Assembly (NCBI GenBank): GCA_964476605.1
Contig: CAYZBH010000004.1
Coordinates: forward strand, 704 to 64,703
Source of the DNA: an uncultured Thermoanaerobaculia bacterium
GTDB lineage: Bacteria; Acidobacteriota; Thermoanaerobaculia; Multivoradales; JAGPDF01
Reading direction: 5' to 3'
DNA: 64,000 nt
The notes below the pieces were generated by a model that was given only the letters and a program-made list of their open reading frames with translations, did no database searches and was not told the DNA's origin. Both the position numbers and the translations under genes were made by a program. This document shows, piece after piece, positions 8,088 to 48,400 of this stretch (positions within the stretch are counted from its first letter, which is position 1; each line of letters opens with the position of its first letter).

Positions 8088-8110
8088 GGCAGGTGGGGAC
8101 GGGTGGGACG

Positions 8111-8126
8111 GGTGCCAGCCGATTTT
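8111..8126. repeat. REP-like element copy (GGTGCCAGCCGATTTT), between the convergent gene ends at 8087 and 8156
   Basis: Exact core shared with at least 24 other intergenic copies in this window. Followed by a short direct repeat GATTTCCGTCG x2. Confidence 0.6.
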
Positions 8127-8155
8127 CCGTCGATTTCCGTCGGCGGAGCGGGGCC

Positions 8156-8566
8156 TCAGCGCGTCGCGTGGACCTCGCGGAGCTCGACGCCCTGGGCGTC
8201 GGTGATGCCGCCCCTCAAGCTCTCGCCGTCGAGGCGGTACCACCAGGTGCAGCCGGGGCAGCGCGGCGCGTCGAAGCGGTAGGTCCAGCGGCCGTCCTGG
8301 TCCGACCAGGTGAGGTCGAACTCGCCCATCGACTCGAAGGCACCGGCGACGAGCTTCTGCGCGTCCATGTGGTAGCGCGCCGGCCCGCGGGGGTTCGCGG
8401 TGACGACGTAGCGGATCGTCTCGTCCTTGCAGGGGCTCCCGGGCTCCTGATGGATGCAGACGGAGGTGCCGTGCCACTCGCCCAAGAGGGCGTCCCCCGG
8501 GGAGGCGGCCCACGCGAAGGCGGACGCGACGCCGAGGCAAGTAGTGAGACAGAACTCACGGAGCAT
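8156..8566 (-). CDS. Hypothetical secreted Cys-containing protein
   Basis: ORF 8156..8710 trimmed to MLREFCLTTCLGVASAFAWA (signal peptide) at 8566. 6 Cys in the mature part. I recognise no family. Confidence 0.4.
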   Translation of the reverse strand: MLREFCLTTCLGVASAFAWAASPGDALLGEWHGTSVCIHQEPGSPCKDETIRYVVTANPRGPARYHMDAQKLVAGAFESMGEFDLTWSDQDGRWTYRFDAPRCPGCTWWYRLDGESLRGGITDAQGVELREVHATR

Positions 8567-8797
8567 GGGACCCCCCGGCCATCCGGCCTTTGTCCTGGTC
8601 GCAGAGACTAGCGAATTCGAGACCCCGAATAGATACGGGCTCCCAGCCATGAAGTGCGCCCTCAGGCGATGGGGGTCTGATCCAAGCAAGGCTCCGGACA
8701 GGCGCCGCACGAGATGTCAAGGGCTTGCACCCAAGCCTTCGTTGGGGCCGGCGCGGGCTGTCAGGAATCGGGCCTACAATCAAGGCCGGAGGCCACC

Positions 8798-11700
8798 ATG
8801 CGCCACCGGTCCCGATTCGAGGAGCGCTTCCTCGCCGCGAATCGCCGCGGCATCCCTTTTCTCGCCCTTGCCTTCGTCGCCGCGGCATCCGCTTCCGAGG
8901 TGCTGGCGCTGGAGCCGCCGCGCCTGGTCGCGGATCTCTCGACCTATGTGTACGCCCGCGGCTCGAATCCCCACGAGATGCACCGCATCGGCGAGCGCAT
9001 CGTCTTCGCGGCCTCGGATCCGTTGTACGGGAACGAGCTCCGAGGCATCGGCGCGGACCTGCAGGGTCTCGAGCTCCTCGTCGACGCGACGCCGGGAACT
9101 CTCGATTCGAGTGTCAGGTTCGTGGGCGAGATCGGCGGGGCTCTTGCGTACCTGGTCGGTGAGGGCAGCTATCCTCGGCTCTTCGTGACCGACGGGACGA
9201 CCGCGGGCACGCGTCTCGTTCGCACCGGCGACGGAGCAGCCGTTCTCACCCAGGACGTGGGCTGGTACACGGATGTCGTGGTCTCGGGGGAGAGGCTCTA
9301 TTGGGCGGGGAAGTCCTCCACGAGCTTCGCGCGTGGGCTCTGGGTCGTCGCCGCCGACGGGGTCGCGACACTCCTCCATTCACTGGAGCTCCCGGCTCGT
9401 TATTTCGACGAGCATCGCATCGAGGGGTTGAGAGCCGTTGGCGCGAGGGTCTTCTTCCAGGACGTGGACTCCTTCGATCGCGGGCAGATCTGGGTGATGG
9501 ACGGGACGCCGGGGGGGACTCGCCGCGTCACGGATCAGGTCGAGGCCTACGACTGGTTTGCCGCGGCCACCGAGGATCTGTACTTCTTCGAGGGCTGGAA
9601 CGGGGACCGCTACGCAATCTGGTCGACCGACGGAACGGAGCAGGGCACGCGGCTCTTGCGCGAGTGGCAGGTAGAGGGCTTCAGCGGTGGCTTGTCTCCC
9701 TTCGTGGACGGGAGCCGGAGGATCTACTTCTTTGCCGGTTCCGACTCGGACCACCCAGTCTGGATGTCCGACGGTACCGTGTCGGGAACCGTGCCGGTCG
9801 AGCTCGACGTGGGGGATCCCTGGTACGGTGGGACGTATCACGTCTGGCTAGGGGAAGATCTCGTCTTCAGCTCGCCGAACGGGAGTCTGTGGGCGCACGA
9901 CGGACAGGCGACGGCGGCGAGGCCGCTCACGCTCGCGCTTCCCGACGGGAGGCCCTGGCACGGGCCGATGACGCTCCTCGGCGATCTCCTGCTCTTCTCC
10001 GTCGACGACGCGGGCGGAGAGGGCTACCAGATTTGGCGTACCGACGGTACTGCTACCGGGACTTTTCAGGTGAGCAACTTCGAGCCCGGCGAGGTCCGGA
10101 GTGGCTCGGGCCAGGGCCACGATGCCGGCGGCGTCGCGGTCTTCAACTTGGACGAGTATTGCAACAGCCTTCCTCCGCTTTGCAGTTGGATCCCTTTCGT
10201 CACCGACGGCACGCCTGGAGGTTCGAGGATCCTGGGGGGGGAGCTCGAAGTGGCCTTCGGCTACGACGGAAATGCGGCGGTCTGTCGCGAAGGACTTCTC
10301 GTTCAAGGCTACAGCCGAGCTTCCCTGACGGGAGTAGAGCCCTGGCTCGTCAGGCTCCCAGAAGGATCCGCCCGGCCAGTGGCGAACCTCGAACCGGAAA
10401 TCGGGAGCACGACTTTCGGCGCTCTCCATGCGCGCGGAGAGGGTCTGCTCTTCGAGGTGTGGGACTGGGATGGAGAGGCCTCGCTCCTGGCGATGGCCGA
10501 CGGACAATCCCAGCCTCATGCGCTCCCGGAATTCGGATTGACTTGGCCAGACCTGCTGGCGGTCGTGAGCGGCGGAGCCTTGGCGGCGGGGTACGACCTC
10601 GCGGGCTATGAGCGACTTCTCACGTTGGCCGACGATGACTCGGGCTGGCGACCCTTGCCGGCGACGCTCGACTACAGTTCGGAGAGCGTCGTCGTTACCG
10701 ACGGTTCGCAGGCCTACGTTCGCCAGAGCGTCGCGAGCCCGACGATCTGGCGATCCGATGGTACGGACGAAGGAACGTGGGCGCTTCTTGTCCCCGGACT
10801 TCCTGCCTACGTCCAACCCGTGGCTGCGACGCAGACGCACCTGCTGATGCGCGAGGGCTATCTGCCGACGATTTGGTACGGGGTGAGCACCCAAGACGGA
10901 GCTCTGGAGCAGCTTCTCGAGGAGTCGGGCCCAACGCGCTGGGGCTTGGGCGGAGAAGTCGCTGCGACGGACGACCTCTCATACTTCACGACGCCGGAGC
11001 TCGGCTCGGTCGAGGTCCTTCGTTACTCGGATGGGACGGCGGCCGGGACCGGTGTCTCTTGGACCTCGCGGCGCGACGAGCGGGTCCTCGACCTCTATCC
11101 GGTGGGGGAGGATCTCTACTTCCTCGCCGCCTCAGATCGCCTGGGTCTCTGGCGGACACGGGCTGGGGAGCCGGCGACCCTGGTCGCCGACCTCGGGTCG
11201 CTCGCCCGGTATGCCGACGATGAGGAGGCTTGCGAAGGTACGGTCGTCGAAGGCCGGCTCTGGTTCGTCGCGGAGACGGCCGCGACGGGACGCGAGCTCT
11301 GGTCGAGCGACGGAACCGCGGAGGGAACGGCGGTCGTGGACCTCGTCCCCGGACCTGTCGGCAGTGACCCGCGCTGGCTAGCATCGATCGGGAACCGGCT
11401 CTTCTTCAGTGCCGACGACACCTACTTCGGCCGGGAAGTCTGGAGCGTCGCCGAGGGATGGCCGGAGCCCATTCGTGTCTCGGACATCGCCGCGGGACCG
11501 GCGAGCGCGGCGCCTGAGAAGCTCACCGCGGCCGGGTCCACGCTCTACTTCGCGGCGGACGACGGCGTCCACGGGCGCGAGCTCTGGGCGATCGACAGTG
11601 GAGGAGATGCGATTCCCTGCCAGGCTGACGGCTCGCACCTCTGCCTGCTCGAAGGGCGGTACGAGGTCGAGGCGTTCTGGCGCGACTTCGAGGGGCGCAG

Positions 11701-12481: not shown

Positions 12482-13843
12482 ATGAGCGCCGACCCGAATC
12501 TCTTCGGACACCTCGCGGTCCACTACAAGCTGGTCACGGCCGACCAGCTCGCGGAAGCGACGCGGCGGCAGGCGAAGGACGAGAGCCCGCGGCCGCTCGG
12601 GGACTACCTGATCGACATGGGGCTGATGACCCAGGCTCACGTCGACAAGCTGCTCGCCGTGCAGCGCGAAGTCGTCGCCAGGCAGGCGGCGGCGCGCGCG
12701 GCCGGGCCTGCTGCCCCCGCGGCCGTCGCGGCCCCACTCACTGGCGCTCTGGCCGTCGCCGCGGAGCCGCCCGTGCCGCCGGTCGCGCCGCCGGCGCGCA
12801 GAGTCGATCGCCTGCTCGAGTACGCCTGGCGCCATGGCGCGAGCGACCTCCATCTGCGGAGCGACGAGCGCGTCCTGCTGCGCAAGGGGGGCGAGCTCGT
12901 GGTGACCGGCGACGCGCCCCTGGCGGGCGAGCAGGTGCGGCGGCTGCTCGACGAGCTGCTCGCGCCCGCCGACCGCGAGCGGCTCGAGCGTCAGGGTCAG
13001 GTCGACTTCTCCGCGACCCTCGCCGGTCTCGCGCGCTTTCGCGGCAACGCCTACCGGAGCCAGAGCGGCACGGCCGTCGTGCTGCGCGCGATCCCGGCCG
13101 AGGTGCCGAGCCTGGACGCGCTCGGACTCCCCTCGACCCTCGCCAAGCTCACCAACTTCCACCAGGGGCTCGTGCTCCTGACCGGCCCCGCCGGCTGCGG
13201 CAAGAGCTCGACCCTCGCGGCGCTGCTCCGGCTCGTCAACCAGGACCGCCGCGACCACATCATCACCATCGAGGACCCGATCGAGTACCTGCATCCGCCG
13301 GTGCGCTGCGTCGTCAACCAGCGCCAGGTCGGGCGCGACACCGCGAGCTTCGCGCGCGCCCTGCGCGCGGCGCTCCGCGAGGATCCGGACGTCATCGCGA
13401 TCGGCGAGCTCCGCGACCTCGAGACCATCTCGCTCGCGCTCACGGCCGCGGAGACCGGGCACCTCGTTCTCGCCACGCTCCACACCGGCAACGCGATCCG
13501 CACCGTCGACCGGATCGTCGGCGCCTTTCCCCCCACGCAGCAGCCGCAGGTGCGGGCGATGCTCTCGGAGTCGCTCCGCGCCGTGGTCTCGCAGCGGCTG
13601 GTCAACCGCGCCGACGGCAAGGGGCGGCTGCCGGCGCTCGAGATCCTGCTCGGAACGCGCGCGGTGGCCAATCTGATCCGCGACTCGAAGACCTTCCAGC
13701 TGCGCTCGCTGCTGCAGACCGGGGGCTCCCTCGGCATGGTCTTGCTCGACGCCTCGCTCGCGAAGCTCGTGCGCGAGGGGCTGGTGACGCGGGAGGAGGC
13801 GCTGCGCCACGCCGAGGACCCGAAGGCGATTCCGGCCGCCTAG
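12482..13843 (+). CDS. PilT/PilU-family type IV pilus retraction ATPase with N-terminal MshEN/T2SSE_N-like (putative c-di-GMP-binding) extension
   Basis: Walker A: LLTGPAGCGKSST. Asp box / Walker B: DPDVIAIGELRD. His box: LVLATLHT; all typical of PilT. The ~130-aa N-terminal extension contains RPLGDYLIDMGLMTQAHVDKLLAVQ. This fits the MshEN 24-residue c-di-GMP motif RLGxxLLxxGLLxxxxLxxxLxxQ with one inserted residue. Confidence 0.8.
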   Translation: MSADPNLFGHLAVHYKLVTADQLAEATRRQAKDESPRPLGDYLIDMGLMTQAHVDKLLAVQREVVARQAAARAAGPAAPAAVAAPLTGALAVAAEPPVPPVAPPARRVDRLLEYAWRHGASDLHLRSDERVLLRKGGELVVTGDAPLAGEQVRRLLDELLAPADRERLERQGQVDFSATLAGLARFRGNAYRSQSGTAVVLRAIPAEVPSLDALGLPSTLAKLTNFHQGLVLLTGPAGCGKSSTLAALLRLVNQDRRDHIITIEDPIEYLHPPVRCVVNQRQVGRDTASFARALRAALREDPDVIAIGELRDLETISLALTAAETGHLVLATLHTGNAIRTVDRIVGAFPPTQQPQVRAMLSESLRAVVSQRLVNRADGKGRLPALEILLGTRAVANLIRDSKTFQLRSLLQTGGSLGMVLLDASLAKLVREGLVTREEALRHAEDPKAIPAA

Positions 13844-13855
13844 GAGAGCGACGAG

Positions 13856-14932
13856 ATGGCCCGCCTGCACGAGCTGCTCCGCTACACCAAGGCCCATTCG
13901 GGCTCGGATCTCCATCTCGCGACCGGCATGGAGCCGCGCATCCGGCGCTTCGGGGCGCTCGAGCCGGTGCCGGGGTGGCAGCCACTCTTGGCCGCCGAGC
14001 TCGCCGAGCTCCTCCGCGAGCTGGTGACCGAGACGCAGTGGGAGGAGTACGCCGCGAGCGGCGATCTCGATCTGGCGCTCGGCTTGCCCGGTGTCGCCCG
14101 CTTCCGCGTCAACTACCTGCGCCAGGAGAACGGCCCCTCGGCGGTCTTTCGCGCGATCCCGGAGCAGATCCTGTCGGTCGAGGAGCTGGGGCTGCCGCCG
14201 TCGGTGGCGCGCCTCGCGGAGCTCCGGAGCGGTCTCGTCCTCGTCACCGGGCCGACCGGCTCGGGGAAGTCGACCACCCTCGCCGCCATCGTCGACCGCA
14301 TCAACCGCGCCACGGCACGCCACATCGTGACCATCGAGGAGCCGGTCGAGTTCCTGCACGCGCCGATCCGCTCGGTCTTCTCGCAGCGCGAAGTCGGCCG
14401 CCACACGGACTCCTTCGCTTCGGCGCTCCGCGCCGCGATCCGCGAGGACGCCGACGTGGTGATGGTCGGCGAGCTCCGGGACGTCGAGACGATCGGCCTG
14501 GCGCTGCGCGCCGCGGAGATGGGGATGCTGGTCTTCGGCACCCTGCACACCAACAGCGCCGCGAAGACGATCGACCGGCTGATCGACGTCTTCCCCGTGG
14601 AGGAGCAGGCGCAGGTGCGGCTCTCGCTCTCGGAGTCGCTCGCGGCGATCGTCGCGCAGCTCCTCCTGCCGCGCGCCGACGGCACGGGGCGCGTCGCGGC
14701 GATCGAGCTGATGCTGCGGACGTCTGGCCTCCCGGGCATCATCCGCGAGGGGAACCTGCCGATGTTGGAGACCCTCATCCAGAGCGGCAAGGCGCTCGGC
14801 ATGCAGCTCCTCGACGACGCCCTCATGGCGCTCGTCGAAGCCGGGACCGTCACCCCCCGCGAGGCCTACCTGAAGGCGCTCGACAAGGCCCGCTTCGCCC
14901 CGCTGATCGAGGACGAAGGCGCCGCCGACTGA
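13856..14932 (+). CDS. pilT: Twitching motility ATPase PilT
   Basis: Canonical PilT length (358 aa). LVTGPTGSGKSTT. IVTIEEPVEF. DADVVMVGELRD. LVFGTLHTNSAAKTIDRLIDVFP. 13 bp downstream of the preceding PilT-family gene. Confidence 0.85.
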   Translation: MARLHELLRYTKAHSGSDLHLATGMEPRIRRFGALEPVPGWQPLLAAELAELLRELVTETQWEEYAASGDLDLALGLPGVARFRVNYLRQENGPSAVFRAIPEQILSVEELGLPPSVARLAELRSGLVLVTGPTGSGKSTTLAAIVDRINRATARHIVTIEEPVEFLHAPIRSVFSQREVGRHTDSFASALRAAIREDADVVMVGELRDVETIGLALRAAEMGMLVFGTLHTNSAAKTIDRLIDVFPVEEQAQVRLSLSESLAAIVAQLLLPRADGTGRVAAIELMLRTSGLPGIIREGNLPMLETLIQSGKALGMQLLDDALMALVEAGTVTPREAYLKALDKARFAPLIEDEGAAD

Positions 14933-15000: not shown

Positions 15001-15037
15001 AATCGGCTGGCACCTCACTGGCCCCGGCTGGCACTCA
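15001..15037. repeat. REP-like element (AATCGGCTGGCACC plus degenerate second half-site CCGGCTGGCACT)
   Basis: Intergenic, between pilT and the convergent gene ending at 15068. Confidence 0.55.
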
Positions 15038-15799: not shown

Positions 15800-15920
15800 G
15801 GTGCCAGCCGATTTTCAGGTTCTCAGCCTCGCAGGGACCGACATCCGAAAAGCGGCCGGCACCCAACCAGCAGGCCCCTCGGGCTAGGAGGTCCCGTCGT
15901 CTGAGAAACGGCTGGCACCT
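15800..15920. repeat. Two REP-like copies in inverted orientation (GGTGCCAGCCGATTTT at 15800-15815; AAACGGCTGGCACCT at 15906-15920)
   Basis: Inverted pair separated by ~90 bp in the spacer upstream of the giant adhesin gene. Confidence 0.55.
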
Positions 15921-16335: not shown

Positions 16336-19300
16336 ATGAAGCAGAGTCACGCGTCCCTCGCTGGGGTAGTGGTCTCCTTGGGTCTGTGGGCCTTTGGGGG
16401 AATGGCCGCTGCGGAGGCCCCGCCGCTCCCGTCCTCTCGCTACGGGGCGGTCTCGCTGGCCGGAGCGCCGGCTCCCGACGGGACGGTGGTGTCGGCCCGC
16501 TTTGCGGGCTTGGAGGTCGCCGCCACCGTCGTTGACGCGTCGAGCGGAACCGCACGCTACCGCCTGGACGTGCCGGGGGACCGCGCCGAGACTCCGGAGA
16601 TCGAAGGTCCGGCGGAAGGGGAGCCCTTCGAGCTCCGGGTGGGGGGTGCGCTCGCCGCCACCGAGACCTGGCAGAGCGGTCTCTACACCGCCGCCGATCT
16701 CGCGACCGGCGGCGGCGCGGACCTCGCCGTCGCGATCGACGATGGAGTGACGTCGATCGCGGCCGGCGGATCGCTCGGCGCGGCGGTTTCGGTCGCGAAC
16801 CAGTCGTCGATGGCCGCCACTGGAGTCGATCTCGTGGTCGACCTTCCGACGGGAGCGGCATTGGTTTCGGCGAGTGACGGCGGTGCACTCGACGCGCAGG
16901 GACGCCTGCGGTGGCCCCAGTTCGCGATCTCCGGGGGCGATGGGGCGACGCGTTCGTTCGTCGCCCAGCTTCCGTCGGCCTACCCGGCCGGCATCGAGAT
17001 CGTCGAGACCCGGGTTGCCGTCCGCCATGACGGTGCCGAAGGCGGTGACCCCGACCCGTCGGACGACAGCGCGGGCGACGTCGACGCGCTCGAGGCTGCA
17101 CCCGATCTCGTGACGTCCGTGAGCGATGGCGCGTCGAGCGTCGCGCCTGGCAGCACGCTCTTCTACCGGACGACGGTCGCCAATTCCGGGACCCAGGGGG
17201 CGACCGGTGTCGAGTTGGAAGTGGCCCTTCCTTCAGGCGCCGAGCTCTTCTCGACGAGCCACGGGGGCCACGAGAGCGGCGGTGTCGTCCGTTGGCCGGC
17301 GGTCTCCTTGCCGGCGAGCGCCACCTTCGAACGAGTGATGACGCTACGCCTGCCGGAGGACCTGGATCCGGGTGTCGGGTCGCTCACCGTGCTCGCTCAC
17401 GCGGCCGATGACGGGACGAACGGCGACGACCTCGAGCCGGCCGACAACGACGCCATCGACGTGGACGGCGTCACGCACGCGCCCGATCTCGTGGCGAGGG
17501 AAGTATCCCGCTTCGGAACGACGACCGATCCCACGACGCTCGAGATCTCGGGAGAAGTTCTCGTGACGATGACGAATTCCGGGACCCTGGCCTCGGGGCC
17601 CTTCACCACCGTCGTGTTTCTCGATGTGAACGGCGACGGATCGTACGATCCGCTCGTCGATTCGGCTCTCGGTACCGCAGGCCACCTCTCACTGGTTCCG
17701 CAAGAAAGCAACTCCGTGCTCGTGCCGGTCGCGGGAACGGTGCCCTTCCTCGGCGATCGCCTCTTCGCCTTTCTCGACTCCGATCACGAGGTGAGCGAGC
17801 TGTCGGAGACGAACAACGTCGCGAACAGCTCGACGTCCTGCGGCGCGGTCCCGCCGCCCGAGAGCTTCGCGCCGCGGGTCGAGCTGAGTTGGCCACCTGC
17901 CGGGGGGCCCACCAACTTCCCGCGCGCGATCGATTCCCTCTCGACGCCCCTCGTCGTGCAGCTCACCGACGACAACGGCGATGGCCTCTGGAACGAGCTC
18001 GACATTCCAGACCTGGTCTTCGTCACGGCCGATCTGACCTATCTGCTCGAGCCGCAGGTCGCTCTGCGCGCCATCCGGGGAGGAAGCGGCACGCCGATCT
18101 TCGACGTCAACGGCTTCTTTCCGCACCCCACCAATCCCCAGCTCCTCTCCTTCTCGGGCCTCGCCGCCGGCGACATCGACAACGACGGCAAACCGGAGAT
18201 CCTCTCGACGACCTTCGGTCCGGCACCGTTCAACCAGATTCGGGCGTACGAGCACAACGGGGTACCGAAGTGGGTGAGCGCCGCCTATCGCACCCATCCG
18301 AGCCCCACCGGGCTCTCGAATCGCGACAACCCCACGATCGCCGATCTCGACGGTGACGGCTTCGCCGAAATCGTCGTCGGCGCCAACGTTTTCGACCGTT
18401 TCGGCCACCTCCTCTGGCGTGGCACCGGGGGGCAGGCCTTCCAGTCGTCCGGCAACTCGGGGGACCGGGGGGGAGCCATCTCGGTCGCCGCCGACGTCGA
18501 TCTCGACGGCCGGATGGAGGTCGTGACCGGCAACACGCTCTACCGGTGGAACGGCGAGATCGTCTGGCAGGTGCCCTGGCCCGACGGCTTCCCGGCGGTC
18601 GCCAACTTCGACGACGACCCACAGGCGGAGATCGTGGTGGTCTCGCAGGGGACGGTCCGTCTGCACGACACCGACGGGACCCTGATCTGGGGGCCCGTGA
18701 CGCTGCCCGGCTCGGATCCGGAGGCCGGGGGACCTCCGACCATCGGGGACTTCGATGGCGACGGGGCGCCGGAGATCGGGGTCGCGGGATCGGACGTCTA
18801 CGTCGCCCTCGACACCGACGGCTCGATCCTCTGGCAGGCGCAAACGCAGGACTACAGCTCCAACCTCACCGGCTCGACCACCTTCGACTTCGACGGCGAC
18901 GGTTGGCTCGAGATCATCTACCGGGACGAGCGGCGCCTGCGGATCTATCGGGGATACGACGGGGAGGTCCTGTTCGAGTCGGTGCTCTCGTCGAACACCC
19001 AAACCGAGGAGCCGGTCGTCGCCGACGTCGACCGCGACGGCAACGCCGAGATCGTGGTCACCTCGGATCGCGCACCCGACGTGCCGGTGGCTCCGGGGGA
19101 ACGCACCTACGGTCTGCGCGTCTTCGGGGATGCCGGTGACGGGTGGGTGGCGGCGCGGCCGATCTGGAATCAGCACGCCTACACTCCGGAGCTCGTGGAC
19201 ACGGACGCGGGGACGCCGGCTGTGCCCGCTTGGAGCTGGCTCGAGCACAACAGCTTCCGAGCCAACGTACCGCCGGGAGGAGACCCGACCGCGGCTCCGG

Positions 19301-31736: not shown

Positions 31737-31744
31737 CGGGAGAG

Positions 31745-32221
31745 TTGCAATTGACAAAGATAGGCGACGTCTTCGGAATCCAGACCAAGATTGGGCTAGC
31801 CCTCTTTCAGGTTACTCACCGCCATTCGCAGCTGGGTCACCTGATCCGAGTTCTTGAAGGTCACTTCTCTGTTTGCCCGGAAGACCTGGAGGTACTAGTG
31901 ACTCGGCCTCATCGATTCCTCACTTTCTTTCCAGTTACTGCCGCCGAGAAGCGAGGCATCATCAGGAAGGTGGGGAGCCTCGGAGTTCCGGAGTCTTGCA
32001 AGGCGTTTCCAGTGTTTCGCGCGGCCGGTGCAACTGATCGAAAGGGAAGGGTGCTGACCTGGTGGCTCTGGGATGGTTCGCGAAGTTGGCCAGCTGGAGA
32101 TTTGAGCGACGAACAGCGAAAGCTCCCCATACGAGCGGTCTGGAACGACACTCTGCTGATTGAGCGGATTGACGCTGGATGGACGCCGGAGTCTGACGCT
32201 AGAGGGGAGAAGATGGGCTGA
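31745..32221 (+). CDS. Putative cognate immunity protein for the RHS C-terminal nuclease
   Basis: 158-aa ORF starting 9 bp after the RHS stop, same strand. Lies in the same low-GC tract as the toxin tip. No signal peptide and no recognisable family. Position and composition are the only evidence. Confidence 0.45.
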   Translation: MQLTKIGDVFGIQTKIGLALFQVTHRHSQLGHLIRVLEGHFSVCPEDLEVLVTRPHRFLTFFPVTAAEKRGIIRKVGSLGVPESCKAFPVFRAAGATDRKGRVLTWWLWDGSRSWPAGDLSDEQRKLPIRAVWNDTLLIERIDAGWTPESDARGEKMG

Positions 32222-32261: not shown

Positions 32262-32600
32262 GAAAAGGTGCCAGCCGTTTCTCCGAAGCTTCTAGAGGCA
32301 TCTTGAATTCGAGAGCGGATCTCTTGGGCAGCAATCTCCCGCGACGAGGTTCTGTGGCGAGATGAAGGGCTCGTGGCCTCGGCAGTAGCGCGCGGAGATT
32401 CGCCCCAAAATGATGCCAACATGGTGCCAGCCGTTTTTCTGGACTGCTGAAGCGAAAAGGGGAAAAGGTGCCAGCCGTTTTCCTAGTTTTCCTAGGCTTC
32501 TTCAGGCATCTTGAATTCGAGAGCGGTTCTCTTGGGCAGCAAACTCTCGCGGCGAGGTTCTGTGGCGAGAAGAAGGGCTCGTGAACAGCGGCGGTAGCGC
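32262..32600. repeat. Direct repeat array, period ~199 bp (2 full copies + partial), each copy beginning with a REP-like GGTGCCAGCCGTTT core
   Basis: 32262-32395 and 32461-32600 align at ~85% (GAAAAGGTGCCAGCCGTTT...CATCTTGAATTCGAGAGCGG.TCTCTTGGGCAGCAA.CTC.CGCG.CGAGGTTCTGTGGCGAGA.GAAGGGCTCGTG). A partial third REP sits at 32423-32438. Non-coding. Lies between the immunity gene and the 3' end of the RAYT gene. Confidence 0.6.
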
Positions 32601-32758
32601 GTGGAGCCTTGCTCTGAGCGTCACCTGACGCAAGTGCGCATCGTATACGGGCGAGGTCCCCGTGAGGCGTCACCGAGCGGTGGTCACATCTCGCGGCCCT
32701 ACATCGGCCCAGCGACTCACCTAGGCCCTTTGTTCAGGATTCGATCGAGTCGCGGCTC

Positions 32759-33688
32759 CTACCCGGAGGCGAAGCGGCGCGGTAGCGCAGGCGGGAAGGA
32801 GCCCTCGGGGAAGAGGACGTCGAGTGTTCCCGTGCGCAGCCGATCGGCGGCGCGGCGATACGCGTTGAGGAATCCCCGATAGGCCTCGCGGAGGGCCGTT
32901 CGAGCTGTCCGTGAGGCGGCATGGACGAGCGGGGCGGGGCCCTTCTTGAGCCGGTTCGGTTCGTGGTGGGGATCTTGCCGCAACACGCCCTCCCAGCCGA
33001 GCGGTGGCGCTCCCGTCTGGCGTTCCTGGTTGCGCCCTTCCTGCTCGATTCCGTCGACCAGGTCCCAAATGTGGCTCCTCCGCCGTGATTCGGTAAGCCC
33101 TCTCCAGCAAGGGAGTTGCACGAGCTCAAGCGATTCGACCGTGACGAACGCCTCGGGATCGAGGGGAAGGCGCCGGCGGGCTGCGGTGTGCTCGAGCGTG
33201 CGGTCGATCCAGCGGCCGGAAACGGGCTGATTCTCGAGCAGAGCCTTGGCGCAATGGGCGCCGGGCCAGTCGAAGGGAGAAGACACGAGGCCCTCTTTGA
33301 CGCCATGAGCGAGGACGTAGCGGAGGCGAGCGATTTGGGCCTCCTCCTCGCTGGAGACCAGGATCGCTTGGTATCTCCGGCCCCAGAATTTCTCACGCCA
33401 GCGGATGAGCCGCCCGGCTTCGCGGGCGAGATTGGAGTTGAGGTAGTTCATGAAGCTGGCCAGCCGCTGTGCGCTCTCGACGGTCACCAGCAGGTGGAAA
33501 TGATTGGAGAGAAAGGCGAAGGCGTGGAGCTCGACCGGGTAGAGGCGCGCGGCCCGAGCGAGGACGCCGAGCGTCAGGTCGCGGAGGATCGGCGTGGGGC
33601 TGAGAAGGAGCCGGCCCTGCACGGTCCGACAGGTGACTTCGACGAGCGATCCAGGCGGAATGAAGCGCAACCGGCGACACATACTCAC
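32759..33688 (-). CDS. IS200/IS605-family Y1 (HUH) transposase, REP-associated tyrosine transposase (RAYT)-like
   Basis: HUH motif NHFHLLVTV. Downstream conserved W..RRYQAIL segment carrying the candidate catalytic Tyr (REKFWGRRYQAILVSSEEE). ~300 aa. Flanked on both sides by REP-like repeats. Confidence 0.7.
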   Translation of the reverse strand: MSMCRRLRFIPPGSLVEVTCRTVQGRLLLSPTPILRDLTLGVLARAARLYPVELHAFAFLSNHFHLLVTVESAQRLASFMNYLNSNLAREAGRLIRWREKFWGRRYQAILVSSEEEAQIARLRYVLAHGVKEGLVSSPFDWPGAHCAKALLENQPVSGRWIDRTLEHTAARRRLPLDPEAFVTVESLELVQLPCWRGLTESRRRSHIWDLVDGIEQEGRNQERQTGAPPLGWEGVLRQDPHHEPNRLKKGPAPLVHAASRTARTALREAYRGFLNAYRRAADRLRTGTLDVLFPEGSFPPALPRRFASG

Positions 33689-33707
33689 CTAGGACGAAAG
33701 GGGAGGG

Positions 33708-33777
33708 TCACTTCTTTCGGAAATCGGCTGGCACCTGGCCGGCCAGAGCTACTTCTTTCGGAAATCGGCTGGCACCT
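33708..33777. repeat. Tandemly duplicated 27-bp REP-containing unit (ACTTCTTTCGGAAATCGGCTGGCACCT x2) immediately upstream of the RAYT start
   Basis: Copies at 33708-33736 and 33749-33777. Confidence 0.6.
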
Positions 33778-34845: not shown

Positions 34846-35487
34846 GTGCTCGGTCGCCTCGACGCCGCCCTCGCCAGCCGTTGGGCGAAGGGGGTGCTCT
34901 TCCTCGCCGCCCTGGCGCCGCTCGCGGTGCTCGTGGCACGCGTCGCCGGGCACCGAGCCTCGGCCAACCCGATCGAGTTCGTGGAGCATTGGCTCGGCGA
35001 CTGGACGCTCCGGCTGCTCCTGACGACGCTCGCGGTGACGCCGCTCCGCAAGGCGCTTCACCTGCCGCGCCTGGTGCGTTTTCGCCGCATGCTGGGTTTG
35101 TTCGCTTTCTTCTACGGTGCCCTGCACCTGGCGGCCTGGGTGGTGCTCGACCACTTCTTCGACCTCGCGGCGATGGGGGCCGACCTCCTCAAGCGACGCT
35201 ACATCACGGTCGGGGCGCTGGCGCTCCTCCTCCTGGTGCCACTCGCGGTGACCTCGACCAACGGCTGGATGCGCCGCCTGGGGGGGAAGCGCTGGCAGCG
35301 CCTGCACCGGCTGGTCTATCTCGCGGCCGCGCTCGGCGTCGTGCACTACCTCTGGCTGGTCAAGTCCGACCGCACGAAGCCGCTCGAGTACGCCTTCGTC
35401 CTCGGCGTCCTGCTCGCGGCGCGCCTCGTCCCCCGCCTCACCGGGACCTTCCGGCGCCACTCCGACAAGGTGCCAGCCGATTCGTAG
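34846..35487 (+). CDS. msrQ: Heme-binding membrane subunit MsrQ (YedZ)
   Basis: GTG start 3 bp after the msrP stop. In frame with the back half of track ORF 34072..35487. 6 TM helices with conserved His. Its msrQ identity is inferred from synteny with msrP. Confidence 0.7.
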   Translation: MLGRLDAALASRWAKGVLFLAALAPLAVLVARVAGHRASANPIEFVEHWLGDWTLRLLLTTLAVTPLRKALHLPRLVRFRRMLGLFAFFYGALHLAAWVVLDHFFDLAAMGADLLKRRYITVGALALLLLVPLAVTSTNGWMRRLGGKRWQRLHRLVYLAAALGVVHYLWLVKSDRTKPLEYAFVLGVLLAARLVPRLTGTFRRHSDKVPADS

Positions 35488-35590
35488 CCCTTTGGACCAG
35501 GGTGACAGTGCGAGAATCAGAGCCGGCCGCTCGATCGTGGCCCCTCCTGGGGTCCAGATTCGCGGGATATCGGAAAATCGGCTGGCACCT
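35469..35590. repeat. Inverted pair of REP-like copies (GGTGCCAGCCGATTCG at 35469-35484; GGAAAATCGGCTGGCACCT at 35573-35590)
   Basis: Located at the 3' end of msrQ / intergenic. The first copy overlaps the last codons of msrQ. Confidence 0.55.
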
Positions 35591-35614
35591 GGCGAGGAGC
35601 AGCTGGCGAGGAGG

Positions 35615-36373: not shown

Positions 36374-36401
36374 GGCGGGCTCCGGCGGAACCAGCCCATT
36401 C

Positions 36402-36461
36402 GGGGGATTGGCGAATCGGCTGGCACCTGGACGGGGGATTGGCGAATCGGCTGGCACCTGG
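36402..36461. repeat. Tandem duplication of a 31-bp REP-containing unit (ACGGGGGATTGGCGAATCGGCTGGCACCTGG x2)
   Basis: Copies at about 36400-36430 and 36431-36461. Between the RDD gene start and the DUF1801 gene end. Confidence 0.6.
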
Positions 36462-36990: not shown

Positions 36991-37069
36991 GATGCCAGCC
37001 GATTCGCGCGACCTGCGCGACCTGTCGAGAATCGGCTGGCACCTTGGCTCCGCGATTCGGCTGGTACCT
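36991..37069. repeat. REP cluster: inverted pair (GATGCCAGCCGATTCG / GAGAATCGGCTGGCACCT) plus a degenerate third copy (GCGATTCGGCTGGTACCT)
   Basis: The inverted pair is separated by a 25-nt spacer containing GCGCGACCTG x2. Potential hairpin. Confidence 0.55.
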
Positions 37070-37310: not shown

Positions 37311-39779
<2,469 letters not shown>

Positions 39780-40093
39780 GACGGATCTCCCCCCCTCGAT
39801 GGGGACCGGACGGAATTTGCGCGGACTCTACACCCGGACGGCGCCCGGCGCCCGGGCCGTCCGCGGTGGGCACGCAGAGGGACTTCCGGCGCCCTTCGGA
39901 GACGGCATGGAGAAAGCTGGAGAGTGCCGGCCGCGGCTGCGTCGGAGAGTGCTCGGAGAGTGCCAGCCGAGTGTCAAGCCGATCGCGGTCAGCAGGTTGA
40001 AGTGGTGCGGCGCCGGAGTCGGTGGCTGCGCACCCGGCGCGAGGATGCCGTCGGCGGGTCTCGCGGGACGCGATCCGGCGGATAATCGAGGCC

Positions 40094-42622: not shown

Positions 42623-42712
42623 GGCGCGGCGCCGAGGCGCCCGCTTCGGATCAGAGCAGGAGAGGTGCCCGGCGATTCGCCGGATGGCGATCTCTTTGCG
42701 CCTGGCAGCCGC

Positions 42713-43232: not shown

Positions 43233-43344
43233 GGTGCCAGCCGCCTGGAAAACCGCTCGACGCAGAGGCGTGAAGAGGTGCCAGCCGCTCGACAGATCGG
43301 CAAATCACCCCGAATGAGCGACTTGCGAATCGGCTGGCACCTGG
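43233..43344. repeat. REP cluster: three copies, two reverse (43233-43245, 43277-43290) and one forward (43325-43344) forming an inverted pair
   Basis: AGGTGCCAGCCG...45 nt...CGGCTGGCACCT is a perfect 12-bp inverted repeat. Confidence 0.6.
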
Positions 43345-44425: not shown

Positions 44426-44497
44426 CGACGATCTCCCAAGTGGGCGCCGATTCTGTCTCATCGCGCGCGAGCGCGGGCCCGAGAAAGGTGCGGAGAA

Positions 44498-44587
44498 GGG
44501 TGCCAGCCGATTGGCAAACCGTTCCGCATCAGCAACTCGCGAATCGGCTGGCACCCGCGAGGCAATCTGCGAATCGGCTGGCACCTG
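44498..44587. repeat. REP cluster: one reverse and two forward copies (GGGTGCCAGCCGATTGG; GCGAATCGGCTGGCACC x2)
   Basis: Lies in the divergent spacer between the hydrolase and the rhodanese genes. Confidence 0.6.
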
Positions 44588-44704
44588 CTACTGCCCTCGG
44601 GGGTGGTAACAAACGGCCGTCGGGCTCGTAGGACCCAATGAGGGACCCGTCGGCGACGCGCTCCGCGGGCGACGGGTCGTGCCGCGTTCGGAGGAGATAC
44701 GACC

Positions 44705-45685
44705 ATGCGCAATCTGAAGGGGATGCGGGCGTTCGGACTCGTCGTCGCGTTTGGACTTCTCGCGGCGTGCACCTCTGCTGGGCCCCGGCCGGCGGCCGTT
44801 CGCGCCGCCCCGGCGATCGACTCGCTGGTGACGACGGAGTGGCTGAGCCAGCATCTGAACGATTCCGACCTGGTGATCCTCGACTGCACCGTCCGCGTTC
44901 AGCGCGGCGAAGAGGGCGGATTCAAGGCTCTGAGCGGCCGGGAGGAGTTCGAGAAGGGGCACATCCCGAAGGCGGGATTCGCCGACCTGATCCACGATCT
45001 CGCCGACGATACGAGCTCGCTCGGCTTCGCCGTGCCGTCGCCCGAGAAGTTCGCGGCCGCGATGGCGGCGCTCGGCGTCCGCGACGACGCGCGGGTGGTG
45101 CTCTACTCGGCGACGGAGCCGAGCTGGCCCGCCCGCGTCTGGTGGATGCTGCGCTGGATCGGGTTCGACCGCGCCGCGCTCCTCGACGGCGGGCTGAAGG
45201 CGTGGACGGCCGAAGGGCGTCCGCTCTCGACGGAGGCCCCGAACCGGCCCGCGGGCCGGCTGACGGTGGCGCTCCGCCCCGGCCTGATCGCGGATCGGGA
45301 CGAGGTGCGTGCCGCGGTCGACGACGGGAAGGTCACGATCGTCGACTCGCTCCCGCCGGCGAGCTACGAAGGGAAGTTCTCCCTCTACAAGCGTCCCGGT
45401 CACATCACCGGCGCCGTCAACATGCCGGTGACCGCGCTCCTCGACGAGGCGGGTCGCTTCCTCCCGGCCGAGCAACTCGCGGCGATGCTCTCCGTCGAAC
45501 GCAAGAGCCGGGTGATCACTTACTGCGGCGGCGACATCGCCGCCTCCGAGGACGCCTTCGTCCTGACCCGCCTGGGCTACGCGAACGTGGCGGTCTACGC
45601 GGCGTCGCTGCAGGAGTGGGCCGCCGATCCCACCAACCCGATGACGGTCGGCCCGAACCCAAGGGAGGCGCCGACCCAGGAATAG
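44705..45685 (+). CDS. sseA: Thiosulfate / 3-mercaptopyruvate sulfurtransferase (tandem rhodanese domains), lipoprotein-type signal
   Basis: Two rhodanese domains. Active-site loop: CGGDIAAS. Conserved GHIPKAG and GHITGAVN. Lipobox-like LLAAC. Confidence 0.8.
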   Translation: MRNLKGMRAFGLVVAFGLLAACTSAGPRPAAVRAAPAIDSLVTTEWLSQHLNDSDLVILDCTVRVQRGEEGGFKALSGREEFEKGHIPKAGFADLIHDLADDTSSLGFAVPSPEKFAAAMAALGVRDDARVVLYSATEPSWPARVWWMLRWIGFDRAALLDGGLKAWTAEGRPLSTEAPNRPAGRLTVALRPGLIADRDEVRAAVDDGKVTIVDSLPPASYEGKFSLYKRPGHITGAVNMPVTALLDEAGRFLPAEQLAAMLSVERKSRVITYCGGDIAASEDAFVLTRLGYANVAVYAASLQEWAADPTNPMTVGPNPREAPTQE

Positions 45686-45758
45686 GCGAAGAAGACGGTC
45701 GGGAGCGTTGCGCCGAGGGTTGCCATCAGCGGCGCAAGCGATGTCCTATCAGCAAGTT

Positions 45759-45801
45759 GCGAATCGGCTGGCACCTGCGAGACGTGCACCTGCGAGACGT
45801 G
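45759..45801. repeat. REP copy followed by 15-bp tandem duplication (CACCTGCGAGACGTG x2)
   Basis: In the convergent spacer between the rhodanese and SRPBCC genes. Confidence 0.55.
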
Positions 45802-45817
45802 CGACGCGTGCGAGAAC

Positions 45818-46300: not shown

Positions 46301-46365
46301 CGAGTCTCTCGTGGGGCGAGCTTACCCTCGCGGCAGGGCTGGCGCGCTCTGGTCCGTGACCCTCG

Positions 46366-46776
46366 TCAACTCGTTCGGAGCCGCTCCCAGAACGCACGCG
46401 GCGCGAGGCGGGGGAAGGGCAGGTCGATCTCGGCTTGCAGGAGCTCGCGGTCACCTGTGACGAAGACCTCGGCGGCCGCGGCCGCCGCCTCGGCGAGGAT
46501 CCACGCGTCGTCGGCGTCGACCGGCAGGTCGGCGGCGTGTTCGACACGGGCGACGCGCGCGATGGCGACGGCCTGGTCGCGTAGCAGCGTCTCGATCTCG
46601 TCGAGGGTCGCGCGGGGCAGGCCGAGCTTGCGTTCGAGCACGCCGCCGAGCTCAGCGAGCAGGCGTTCGCCCGCCAGGAGCTCGTGCTCGGCGAGCGTCA
46701 GGGCCAGGAGATCCGAGCAGAGTCCGCGCGTCGCGAAGGCGGCGACGAGGACGTTGGTGTCGAGGAAGACCCTCAA
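46366..46776 (-). CDS. vapC: PIN-domain toxin VapC
   Basis: LDTNVLV N-terminus with Asp4. Acidic residues in TGDRELL. 136 aa. Overlaps the upstream antitoxin gene by 4 bp. Confidence 0.8.
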   Translation of the reverse strand: MRVFLDTNVLVAAFATRGLCSDLLALTLAEHELLAGERLLAELGGVLERKLGLPRATLDEIETLLRDQAVAIARVARVEHAADLPVDADDAWILAEAAAAAAEVFVTGDRELLQAEIDLPFPRLAPRAFWERLRTS

Positions 46777-47003
46777 GAGACGTCGCGGAAGACGTCCTCG
46801 TCGGTGAGATAGCCGCGCGCCTCCGCGATCGGCGCGACCCGCCGGCGCAGCCGCTCGAGCTCCGCGAGCGCGAGCTGCCGCCGAAGCGCCTCTCGCGCGA
46901 GCTCGCTCTTGCTCCGACCCGTCGTCGCGGCTAATTGGGACAACTTGCGATCGAGCTCCCGATCAAGCCGAATCGTCAGCACCGAATCTCGCATGTAGGA
47001 CAT
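46773..47003 (-). CDS. vapB: RHH/CopG-type antitoxin (VapB-like)
   Basis: 76 aa. LTIRLDRELDRKLSQLAATTGRSKSELAREALRRQL is a ribbon-helix-helix. Adjacent to and coupled with vapC. Confidence 0.7.
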   Translation of the reverse strand: MSYMRDSVLTIRLDRELDRKLSQLAATTGRSKSELAREALRRQLALAELERLRRRVAPIAEARGYLTDEDVFRDVS

Positions 47004-47347
47004 TGTAATACGACGGTGGACGACCGGCCAACGGAGTTTTTTCGAGACGCAACTCTTTCCGTTTCAGTAACTTGAGAAACAGCTGGCACCTTTGAGATCC
47101 GGCTCCCGCGACCGCAAGGCTCGACAGCCACTCCTAGCGGCGAGTCTCGAGGCGCGGCAAAGCAGAGAACTACCCCCTGACCCGAGAGTCTTCAATGAGT
47201 GGCACTTGCGACGTCGTGAAGCCGGAACCAAGGTGCCCTCCCAGGATCGCTGTCTTGAAATCAAACAAGGCGCCGCCTGCGCGCTTGAATGGGCGCAAGC
47301 AAAAATGTAAGGTACCGCCTCACGTCTCACATCCCCTAGGAGGTCGC

Positions 47348-48211
47348 ATGGCAGTGGACCTTGAAATGGTGGGCTCAGGCTCCAAGTCCTGGAATCGGCG
47401 CGGTTCCTACCGCGTTGTCCGCACAGACGCAAGCATCAAGACGCTGTACGTGCAGGGCGCGGGCGGCGGAGGTGGCGGGGGCGGTGCGGGTGGAAGCGGA
47501 TACAACGGGTCACAAACGGACAACGCTGGTGGTGCTGGAGGCGGGGCCGGCGCTTACTACCAGGGCTCCCTGGAGATCAAGATAGGGCAAGTGCCAGTGG
47601 GAGTCGAGTTTGTCGTGGTAGTTGGCGGAGGTGGGCAGGGCGGGTCAGGCGGATCTGCAGGTCTCAACGGCAAGGATGGCGACACAGGTGGCGTCACCTC
47701 CTTCGGCAACGCAGATCCTACGATCGGCCGACTCGTCACGCTATTCGGCGGCCAGGGTGGTCGTGGAGGCGGCGGAAGCCAAGCTCACTGGCCAGGAGCT
47801 GGCGGTTCTGGAAGCGCTAGTGTCAGTCTCGGAGGTAAGGCGGGCACGGATGGAGGGATGGGTGGCGGACCAAGTCAGCACGGGAGTCAAGGTCAAAGCT
47901 CAGGCACCGCAGCTGGTGGCGCAGGTGGCACAACCGTAACCGGTGGGACCTATGATCCCCACGCATCGATTCTCGACACCCGCAATGGCGGTGGGGGTGG
48001 CGGCGGGGGTGCTTCGTACGGAAAAGGAGGCAAAGGTGGAAACGGCGGAGACATCTCCGCCGCAACCACTGCGCCTGGACCGGGCTTGGCTGACGGACCA
48101 GAGGTTGGTGGCGGAGGCGGGGGTGGTGGCGGCCTAGGACAAGACTACCAATACGGCGGACGCGGCTCCGATGGGGCCGACGGCTTTTTCACCCTTACGT
48201 GGTCAACATGA
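47348..48211 (+). CDS. Glycine-rich protein (about 45% Gly; poly-Gly runs) in a low-GC island
   Basis: ORF 47195..48211 trimmed to ATG 47348, preceded by AGGAGGTCGC. Repeated GGxGG / G8-9 runs. No obvious signal peptide. The coding region is low-GC despite the Gly codons. Confidence 0.5.
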   Translation: MAVDLEMVGSGSKSWNRRGSYRVVRTDASIKTLYVQGAGGGGGGGGAGGSGYNGSQTDNAGGAGGGAGAYYQGSLEIKIGQVPVGVEFVVVVGGGGQGGSGGSAGLNGKDGDTGGVTSFGNADPTIGRLVTLFGGQGGRGGGGSQAHWPGAGGSGSASVSLGGKAGTDGGMGGGPSQHGSQGQSSGTAAGGAGGTTVTGGTYDPHASILDTRNGGGGGGGGASYGKGGKGGNGGDISAATTAPGPGLADGPEVGGGGGGGGGLGQDYQYGGRGSDGADGFFTLTWST

Positions 48212-48383
48212 GAAGTTGCTCTTGATTGGCTGAGCACTGCTTGTCAATTCGCCGATAACTGCCGTCGCTCAGCGCGATGCCGCACGGAAAGTGGTGGTGG
48301 CCGATTCGTAAGCCGTTCCCCATCAGCGACTTGCGAATCGTGAGCTGCGAACACTTACGGTAACAAACGACTGTCCGGGACTG

Positions 48384-48400
48384 CGAATCGGCTGGCACCT
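48384..48400. repeat. REP copy at the junction between low-GC DNA and a high-GC gene remnant
   Basis: GCGAATCGGCTGGCACCT. Confidence 0.55.

Follow-up and report, generated by a model that had tools for sequence, protein, structure and literature searches.

An abundant intergenic repeat of a Thermoanaerobaculia bacterium as the probable end sequence of a TIRtron-like element with a Y1 HUH enzyme

Classical repetitive extragenic palindromes (REPs) are imperfect palindromes of 20–40 nt with a GTAG (or CGTC) foot, and the REP-associated tyrosine transposases (RAYTs) of Groups 2 and 3 are encoded by single-copy genes (PMC3116915; PMC3733652; PMC5581495). Abundant flanking 16-mers were described for Groups 2 and 3 only (Bertels et al. 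2017; PMC5581495). Other RAYT-like genes are flanked by terminal inverted repeats (TIRs) in place of REPs, and the names 'TIRYT' and 'TIRtron' were introduced for them; some TIRtrons have moderately abundant TIR families that occur as singles, dimers and clusters, and a distinct group was found in Acidobacteria (Koribacter) (Di Nocera et al. 2013; PMC3733652). Most TIRYTs were assigned to subclass 2.1, which lacks REPs and whose proteins end with a helix-turn-helix (HTH)-like tail at the C-terminus (Quentin et al. 2018; PMC6006769), and the kind corresponds largely to 'Group 1' of Bertels et al. (2017; PMC5581495). The TIRYT-type relatives of RAYTs are scarcely noted in the literature, in which we found no biochemical study of them. 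Here we describe a short intergenic repeat and a Y1 HUH transposase gene in 64,000 nucleotides of an uncultured Thermoanaerobaculia bacterium of the Acidobacteriota (contig CAYZBH010000004.1, positions 704 to 64,703), a stretch that we refer to as the window.

The repeat, which fills the gaps between genes of this soil-type Acidobacteria genome, forms the ends of a small mobile element with a gene for a single-strand-DNA-cutting enzyme. The element works like a TIRtron and shows the two defining features of this kind, namely a RAYT-like Y1 gene with TIR flanks unrelated to GTAG REPs, and a TIR that belongs to a dispersed family of singles, dimers and clusters. As in TIRtrons, a genome carries several diverged copies of the gene, and the element behaves like an insertion sequence (IS), yet its protein belongs to a separate family, distinguished by a C-terminal domain and a TIR of its own. 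The element is a relative of the REP/RAYT systems known from E. coli and Pseudomonas, but differs from them. An initial annotation of the window had named the locus an REP/RAYT system; the pairing of a Y1 transposase with a cognate intergenic repeat stands, whereas the specific label is incorrect, and TIRYT/TIRtron fits better. We consider it probable that the repeat is the TIR of an IS-like TIRtron and that the ends of this element became dispersed in the form of dimers, arrays and solo copies. New features are a conserved C-terminal domain of ~160 aa, a REP-like abundance of the repeat, which is so far linked only to true REP/RAYT systems, and microduplications with a breakpoint at CTG|GCACC.

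The Y1 gene and the ends of the element

The Y1 HUH tyrosine-transposase gene occupies 32759..33682 on the minus strand (307 aa, ATG at 33682) and was recognised by Pfam and a fold match. Upstream of it lie two plus-strand copies of the repeat in tandem with a 41-nt period, which represent the left end (33722..33776; copies at 33722-33735 and 33763-33776). Downstream, a core search with mismatches identified three minus-strand copies of the variant AAACGGCTGGCACC (32267..32480; copies at 32467-32480, 32423-32436 and 32267-32280). Read in the orientation of the gene, the arrangement is GGTGCCAGCCGATT ... gene ... AAWCGGCTGGCACC. The innermost left TIR starts 53 nt before the ATG, which is the modal distance in homologous loci, and the right-end TIR at 32467-32480 starts 279 nt past the stop codon. 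The complete element of ~1.27 kb comprises the left TIR, ~50 nt, the gene for the 307-aa Y1 HUH protein, ~260–280 nt and the right TIR.

For comparison we used 79 homologue loci (52–77% protein identity) from species-representative genomes, all of them metagenome-assembled genomes (MAGs) and nearly all assigned to Thermoanaerobaculia/Acidobacteriota. Within 400 nt upstream of the gene an antisense copy of the repeat is present in 68 of 75 loci and a sense copy in 0 of 75, while within 600 nt downstream 62 of 77 loci have a sense copy and 6 of 77 an antisense copy. Both flanks bear inverted copies in 54 of 73 loci. The modal distances are 50–59 nt upstream and 240–279 nt downstream, the latter range applying to 44 loci when counted from the stop codon. 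The repeat is tied to the Y1 gene, as proposed initially, and flanks it in inverted orientation in the window and in most of the 79 loci. The surrounding genes vary from locus to locus, and the contexts are not syntenic.

Each genome carries 2–6 paralogues with protein identities of 54–97%, and 77 of the 79 genes are intact. Paralogues of the same genome share 85–96% DNA identity over 1.15–1.3 kb, and in the clearest pairs the homology is bounded by the repeats, extending from GAGGTGCCACCCGA to GGCACCTCTTC in L027/L039 and from AGAAAGGTGCCACCCGA to GGCACCCTTTC in L021/L043. In other pairs the alignment ends before one or both repeats (e.g. −77 to +164 in L077/L078). Since the homology of paralogues is bounded by the repeats, the Y1 gene lies inside an IS-like unit. 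In 64 of 260 cases the TIR variant found at the gene is seen again in dispersed copies of that locus, compared to a mean of 8.1 and at most 29 in 5000 permutations (the commonest variant and the window itself were excluded). Internally deleted copies and fragments of the 3' end alone are present among the loci as well. The window itself contains a solo right-end fragment at 32262..32397 (minus strand; repeat search and blastn self-matches), a partial duplicate of the element's 3' end of ~135-145 bp that is 83% identical to 32462-32606, and similar 3'-end fragments occur in L021, L043 and L078. Furthermore, the 5' part of the Y1 gene is partially duplicated in L023 (10001-11128), and L043 has a frameshifted Y1 pseudogene (10001-10908). 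The bin of L051 is labelled Solirubrobacterales (Actinomycetota) and one further homologue Binatia, which indicates either horizontal transfer or mis-binning. The viral contigs searched contained no relative of the Y1 gene.

The protein matches Pfam Y1_Tnp with 32 bits (cut-off 23) and no other Pfam family at E < 0.1. Its best NCBIfam match is REP_Tyr_transpos (RAYT model NF047646) with 52.5 bits, under the cut-off of 80, and the IS200 model gives 17.9 bits at a cut-off of 55. E. coli TnpA-REP (4ER8) is the sole significant sequence match in the PDB. In this alignment H61-F-H63 falls on the HUH motif and Y122 on Y115, in agreement with the HUH motif (NHFHLLV) that had been read from the gene at first sight, and H61, H63 and Y122 are invariant in 60 homologues. 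An AlphaFold2 model of the protein (pLDDT 81.5) has TnpA-REP as its top Foldseek match (4er8_A, E 2e-6, TM 0.69), followed by the ISDra2, IS200 and IS608 transposases. The protein consists of the N-terminal Y1 domain (~aa 1-145) and a conserved, confidently modelled C-terminal domain (~aa 146-300, ~160 aa). This second domain has no Pfam match and, when modelled alone, no fold match by Foldseek in the PDB (best E 2.4). A scan for it in 1.8 billion representative proteins returned 1517 clusters, 682 of them at E ≤ 1e-10. In the full-length matches (~300-320 aa, with one exception of 521 aa) the domain is located at ~147-305, behind the Y1 domain; the shorter proteins, about half of the listed domain matches, we take to be gene fragments from short contigs.

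How the protein relates to described TIRYTs was addressed by phmmer with the sequences of the supplementary alignment of Di Nocera et al. (2013; PMC3733652). It scores 30–36 bits against gbm_2474, sml_4509, aba_1552, aba_3477 and pfs_148A, 15–27 bits against the other TIRYTs tested and 18–19 bits against the RAYTs eco_b228 and pfs_3939. The similarity is weak, and the alignment covers only ~150 N-terminal aa at 24–29% identity. The HuH motif of the Y1 family, NH[FY]H, fits subclass 2.1, whereas the HTH tail of this subclass (Bac_DnaA_C, HTH_23, HTH_28) is not matched by the C-terminal domain of the window protein. The Y-motif of the family, Y-[VIL]-L-[AS]-[HQ]-G-x-K-E-G-L-V, lacks 'NP'; the window protein has Y-x-L-[AS]-[HQ]-G instead of Y-x-x-x-N-P, while all class 2 subclasses have NP in the Y-motif (PMC6006769). 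The TIR start GGTGCCAG agrees with GGGGWSAS, a motif of the majority of described TIRs, although not of all, at only six of eight positions. The Y1 fold, the small size, the multi-copy state and the truncated and internally deleted derivatives are shared with the IS200/IS605 family, from which the element differs by ends that are inverted repeats and by the lack of tnpB. IS200/IS605 elements have no TIRs and carry a different subterminal hairpin at each end.

Two further parts of the element were compared between the loci. Downstream of the stop codon, the stretch of ~260 nt up to the right TIR is conserved in length and not in sequence, with no sign of a conserved RNA or open reading frame (ORF) in 60 loci. 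On the other side, a conserved box TTCGTCCT ('CGTC') precedes the start codon by ~14 nt (33691..33698, minus strand; comparison of loci L012-L090). CGTC is found at −32 to −8 of the start codon in 68 of 78 loci, compared to 13 of 76 in a control window, and at −13 to −15 in 58 of 78. Regardless of the TIR distance, the distance of this (T)TCCGTCYT box to the ATG is fixed. Possible roles of the box are those of a promoter, of a translation signal or of a site for the enzyme.

Dispersed copies of the repeat

The 14-nt core AATCGGCTGGCACC occurs on both strands, and the whole window contains 16 exact matches, whereas 100 dinucleotide shuffles give an expectation of 0.00. If as many as two mismatches are allowed, there are 28 matches (0.42 expected, shuffle maximum 3), and every core match lies between 8111 and 48399. 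The dense repeat family noted initially was confirmed by these numbers, and the 25 positions listed at that time are each located within 4 nt of a core match. Additional copies with two mismatches start at 15850, 39959 and 42664, and degenerate copies with three mismatches at 36387 and 48293. One of the matches with two mismatches, e.g. 42664, could be due to chance. As judged by positional information content, only a block of ~15-18 nt is conserved (G-c-g-AATCGGCTGGCACC-T), while the flanks are unrelated.

Due to the G+C content of ~70% in the window, ORF lists alone are useless, and the gene map was therefore built from third-position GC (GC3) frame analysis and Pfam. According to this curated map ~3.95 kb (~10%) of the 8.0-48.5 kb region are non-coding, and 27 of the 28 copies are wholly contained in this part. 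The only overlap with a coding sequence is the copy at 35469-35482, as had been stated before. This copy provides the final six codons (KVPADS) of an MsrQ-like gene, with the stop codon directly after. In a relative with 87% identity (L093 700-723) the protein ends with KVAADS*, and the repeat is found at the matching place with one substitution; more distant MsrQ relatives have different ends and no repeat, but as a comparison with an empty site they are not syntenic with the window. The RIGWHL / NRLAP peptides of the ORF track are reading-frame artefacts of the repeat, just as initially described. Nearly every spacer of >60 bp between 8.0 and 48.5 kb holds at least one copy, whether it is convergent, divergent or unidirectional. 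With 0.4-0.7 copies per kb the repeat is far above the 'moderately abundant' TIR families reported for TIRtrons.

The related loci amount to 1.46 Mb, in which the strict pattern TCGGNTGGCACC has 187 matches, compared to 2 in reversed-sequence controls, which corresponds to ~1 copy per 8 kb. A loose 11-mer search with one mismatch gave 523 real and 137 control matches, and because of this background of ~26% the stricter patterns were used for the coding/non-coding statistics.

Among neighbours within 200 nt in all loci, direct pairs predominate (68 pairs −− and 52 pairs ++). Inverted neighbours comprise 19 pairs in the −+ arrangement, which is that of the full element, and 5 pairs in the +− arrangement with gaps that are all ≥121 nt, and this asymmetry argues that the dimers mimic the full element. 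The ~18-nt block has no self-complementarity, and single units do not fold as single-stranded DNA (ssDNA) better than shuffles (z −1.0 and +2.1). The inverted pairs do fold, with stems of 11-15 bp and z −3.7 to −5.3 against shuffles, which confirmed the hairpins anticipated in the initial annotation; a pair at 48288-48404 with a 44-nt insertion folds more weakly (z −2.2). We propose that the other ~23 copies of the window would be non-autonomous derivatives, i.e. inverted dimers, direct tandem arrays and solo ends, which accumulate in convergent, divergent and unidirectional intergenic spacers. The inverted dimers keep the left-right arrangement of the element and can form hairpins with stems of 11-15 bp.

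These data bear also on the question whether the locus is a classical REP/RAYT (REPIN) system, in which a RAYT, encoded by a single gene copy and inherited vertically, binds the hairpin and the GTAG foot of each palindromic REP and mobilises it. As in E. coli with TnpA-REP (4ER8) and in Pseudomonas with its REPINs (PMC3116915), a Y1 HUH enzyme is encoded between inverted copies of an abundant extragenic repeat, inverted doublets are able to form long hairpins, and TnpA-REP is the best structural match. The best NCBIfam and PDB matches are both RAYTs, and many homologues carry the JGI annotation 'REP element-mobilizing transposase RayT'. However, the single units (consensus G-c-g-AATCGGCTGGCACC-T) are non-palindromic and have no GTAG/CGTC foot, the RAYT model score remains under its cut-off, and the Y-motif is devoid of NP. 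In contrast to the single-copy RAYTs, the gene has 2-6 paralogues per MAG and itself forms a mobile unit, since homology ends at the repeats, a C-terminal domain of ~160 aa is added to the protein, and direct tandem pairs (120) by far outnumber inverted doublets (24). Of the relationship to RAYTs, the fold and the catalytic residues are retained, but not the model score, the NP and the copy number, and we consider a classical REP/RAYT system unlikely.

The individual copies of the window illustrate these arrangements. Solo TIRs, both found by the exact-core search, are located at 8097..8124 (minus strand; TIR 8111-8124), where an outward microduplication of CACCCGTCC (two units, 8097-8114) is attached, and between convergent genes at 15001..15014 (plus strand; solo fold z +2.1). 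A variant solo TIR ACTCGGCTGGCACT at 39942..39972 (minus strand; TIR 39959-39972) is accompanied by a perfect microduplication, two units of GCACTCTCCGA at 39942-39963, and at 42664..42677 (minus strand) there is the weak copy AATCGCCGGGCACC with two mismatches, whose membership is uncertain at a stringency for which ~0.4 chance matches are expected. A divergent spacer holds the cluster 15800..15919, with copies at 15800-15813 (−), 15850-15863 (+, two mismatches) and 15906-15919 (+, one mismatch) and an inverted pair that folds with z −3.7. The same z value was obtained for the inverted dimer 35469..35612, composed of 35469-35482 (−) and 35576-35589 (+) with the microduplication GCACCTGGCGAGGA / GCAGCTGGCGAGGA at 35585-35612. 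In the cluster 36387..36458 the degenerate copy 36387-36400 (−) is followed by two plus-strand copies in tandem, 36414-36427 and 36445-36458. Their 31-nt period, together with the 41-nt period of 33722/33763, corroborated the tandem duplications recognised earlier. The cluster 36991..37068 combines 36991-37004 (−, one mismatch), 37030-37043 (+) and 37055-37068 (+, two mismatches) and folds with z −5.3.

Five spacers between 43 and 48.4 kb carry a composite of ~60-75 nt, which we call D7. It consists of GGTGCCAGCCGATT, ~29 nt (CGCAAGYCG...ATCAGCRACTTGCG) and AATCGGCTGGCACC, and a third direct copy often follows. The perfect D7 dimer is found at 44499..44585, with 44499-44512 (−) and 44542-44555 (+) separated by a 29-nt spacer and a third direct copy at 44572-44585 (z −5.0). 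In the cluster 43233..43341 (43233-43246 −, 43277-43290 −, 43328-43341 +; z −4.2) the inner pair is of D7 type with a spacer of ~37 nt. In the unit at 45729..45800 (plus strand) the left arm is decayed and the right TIR (45762-45775) intact, and GCACCTGCGAGACGT forms a perfect microduplication (two units, 45771-45800); a decayed unit with the right TIR AAACAGCTGGCACC at 47077-47090 lies at 47044..47090 (plus strand). The fifth dimer, 48293..48399, has its right arm split after AATCG by 44 nt, an intact TIR at 48386-48399 and a weak fold (z −2.2). The 44-nt insert in the TIR arm (window 48335-48385) is bounded by direct TGCGAATCG repeats, as if a small insertion or duplication had taken place within the repeat. 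Another short repeat, GGTAACAAACGNCNGTC, is present at 44605-44621 and 48359-48375 (two copies, 0.03 expected); each copy is located within 30 nt of a TIR copy, and none was found in 92 fetched loci.

The D7 composites are 1.2-1.3 kb (1.21-1.32) apart, which corresponds to one gene per spacer, with genes in both directions. Such a regular spacing is what an integron-like cassette array at 43-48.4 kb would produce, and a short, non-palindromic, abundant repeat that often forms inverted pairs after genes also resembles the DNA-uptake sequences (DUS) of Neisseria, for which the Type IV-pilus-type ATPases of the window could be quoted. The repeat ends GGTGCC...GGCACC are, however, unlike attC (RYYYAAC...GTTRRRY), the genes between the repeats point in both directions, and the same repeat flanks very large genes elsewhere. 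No integrase was detected among the scanned genes, a scan not covering every small ORF. Neither an integron nor uptake sequences explain the fixed place at the Y1 gene ends in 79 loci. We regard both readings as very improbable and rejected them.

Microduplications and a candidate cleavage site

Just outside of the repeat, short tandem duplications are found whose unit comprises the last few bases of the repeat and 6-13 nt of adjoining sequence. The window shows four of them (GCACCTGCGAGACGT, GCACTCTCCGA, GCACCTGGCGAGGA / GCAGCTGGCGAGGA and CACCCGTCC), and in all loci duplications with a period of 7-24 nt adjoin 118 of 530 copies, compared to 14 of 530 random sites. Their inner breakpoint lies at −6, −5 and −4 from the outer end of the repeat in 15, 28 and 9 cases, respectively, while other positions are nearly empty, and it maps to CTG|GCACC. 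This clustering points to a site-specific event ~5 nt inside the outer edge, and CTG|GCACC is therefore a candidate cleavage site. Upstream of some genes larger arrays are present, in which a locus-specific segment X alternates with CC, ACC, CACC, GCACC or the whole repeat, and these arrays read like stuttering.

The period of the microduplications is also of relevance for a possible role as sigma-54 promoters, with CTGGCAC of the core as the −24 box. Each copy contains an exact TGGCAC, and microduplications with an 11-nt period sometimes put GC at −12 (36 of 187 copies). On the other hand, TTGC at −12 (TGGCAC-N5-TTGC spacing) is found in 0 of the 187 strict copies. The copies are located also in convergent spacers, in both orientations and in tandem, and the conserved AATCGG would have no promoter role. 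We assign next to no probability to this explanation, and for the family as a whole it is refuted by the 0 of 187 copies with TTGC at −12.

Returning to the TIRtron, we propose from the breakpoints that the enzyme would nick the strand AATCGGCTG|GCACC, ~5 nt inside the outer TIR edge. The candidate substrate would be GCGAATCGGCTGGCACCT, cut between G and G of CTG|GCACC. Two models may account for the outward 'stutter' duplications of TIR suffix and flank: DNA synthesis that starts from the nick and ends with its resealing, or site-specific loss of sequence between units in tandem. In the first, a Y1 nick at CTG|GCACC would be followed by a short extension of the 3'-OH by a polymerase and rejoining of the covalently bound 5' end, and the outcome would be an exact duplication of [GCACC + X]. 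In the second, [repeat + X] units would be amplified and then trimmed by site-specific deletions that end at CTG|GCACC. The non-palindromic TIR is presumably recognised either on duplex DNA, via the unique C-terminal domain, or as linear ssDNA.

Alternative readings, neighbourhood and significance

Several observations weigh against the repeat being the TIR of a TIRtron. Only ~18 nt are conserved around the dispersed copies, which is very small for a mobile unit, and selection for a host function could be the cause of this conservation instead. Beyond the core, nothing is shared between the D7 dimers and the element of the window; the parent of D7, if any, thus lies outside the window, in which no second Y1 fragment was found, and in the other loci, too, only the core of the D7 dimers has a counterpart. 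Filled/empty-site polymorphism was found neither in six metagenome contigs encoding an identical Y1 protein, which are 100% identical to the window, nor with the non-syntenic msrQ relatives. To our knowledge, the Y1 enzymes studied so far read hairpins, whereas the site described here is non-palindromic, and Pfam and Foldseek against the PDB revealed no recognisable DNA-binding fold in the C-terminal domain. In the 1.46 Mb of loci 20% of the strict copies lie within crude coding-sequence calls, in which 72% of the bases were called coding; this share is probably inflated, partly and not provably, by over-calling of ORFs in GC-rich DNA, which we suspect since the curated map of the window gives 1 of 28. 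Finally, the copy counts refer to the window and the fetched loci rather than to the whole source genome. The claim of an 'active or recently active' system is plausible in view of the intact ORF, the 16 identical cores and some perfect microduplications, and paralogues in other genomes reach 94-97% identity, but this claim is likewise affected by the missing filled/empty-site polymorphism.

A host-related explanation is that the block is mainly a protein-binding or structural site under selection in intergenic DNA (nucleoid organisation, termination, regulation), with the Y1 family as a domesticated partner or as a user of this site for insertion only. It would explain that the short block alone is conserved between unrelated flanks and persists across proteins that have diverged to 52% identity, that the copy at the msrQ 3' end is kept in the relative with 87% identity, and that nearly every sizeable spacer at 8-48 kb has copies. 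The fixed place and orientation at both gene ends and the paralogue homology ending there look like element termini, however, and the TIR variants co-vary with the adjacent gene copy. Moreover, the copies of the window show no bias in orientation or position relative to gene starts or ends, and the spacers of a low-GC island at 48.6-52.3 kb have no copies, as expected for gradual colonisation and not for a required site. We therefore consider a host site quite unlikely, and the TIR of an IS-like TIRtron remains our preferred explanation.

The region 48600-52300 has a lower GC content (62-65%), a weak GC3 signal and a gene for an Mrr-type restriction endonuclease (50293-51201, minus strand); zero repeat copies in its spacers would be expected if it was recently acquired. 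Beside the element (16336-32221) are located the genes for a 3189-aa surface protein (FG-GAP, PKD, DUF11, Calx-beta, HYR) and a 1944-aa RHS/YD-repeat toxin, and a small low-GC ORF (31745-32221) that is probably an immunity gene. In L007 and L008, too, RHS fragments are found at 1-3 kb from the Y1 homologue, and RHS tips may be a favoured landing zone. Two adjacent paralogous genes for type II/IV secretion ATPases (T2SSE) at 12482-14932 share 70-73% DNA identity over ~400 nt. The gene at 44705-45685 encodes a rhodanese (Pfam), and between two repeat-bearing spacers lies a PIN-domain toxin gene with a small upstream ORF, which is probably the antitoxin (46366-46962). Scans of the window gave no Rfam match at the gathering cut-off and no tRNA or tmRNA.

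Most of the Y1-bearing contigs are only 1-7 kb long, and the contigs of the window strain end near repeats; the repeat family evidently breaks short-read metagenome assemblies. Since the repeat makes spurious ORFs and can supply the C-termini of genes (msrQ, KVPADS*), it matters for the annotation of Acidobacteriota MAGs. The data set now available comprises dozens of MAGs with several paralogues each and hundreds of end copies, and it touches the question whether TIRYT-type relatives of RAYTs build abundant repeat families as RAYTs do. It offers a conserved 14-nt recognition candidate and a sharp breakpoint, the latter predicting a cut site, and non-hairpin end recognition by a Y1 enzyme is thereby directly testable. 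A more far-reaching proposal, which we regard as doubtful at present, is that Y1 HUH enzymes of one large clade, which comprises at least 680 clusters (50% identity), have a C-terminal domain that would enable recognition of short non-palindromic ends, probably on duplex DNA, and that nicking at CTG|GCACC would prime outward stuttering synthesis. If true, this would be a mode of action undescribed for any HUH transposase, in which stuttering would let intergenic arrays grow and keep the 18-nt block intact across a whole bacterial class.

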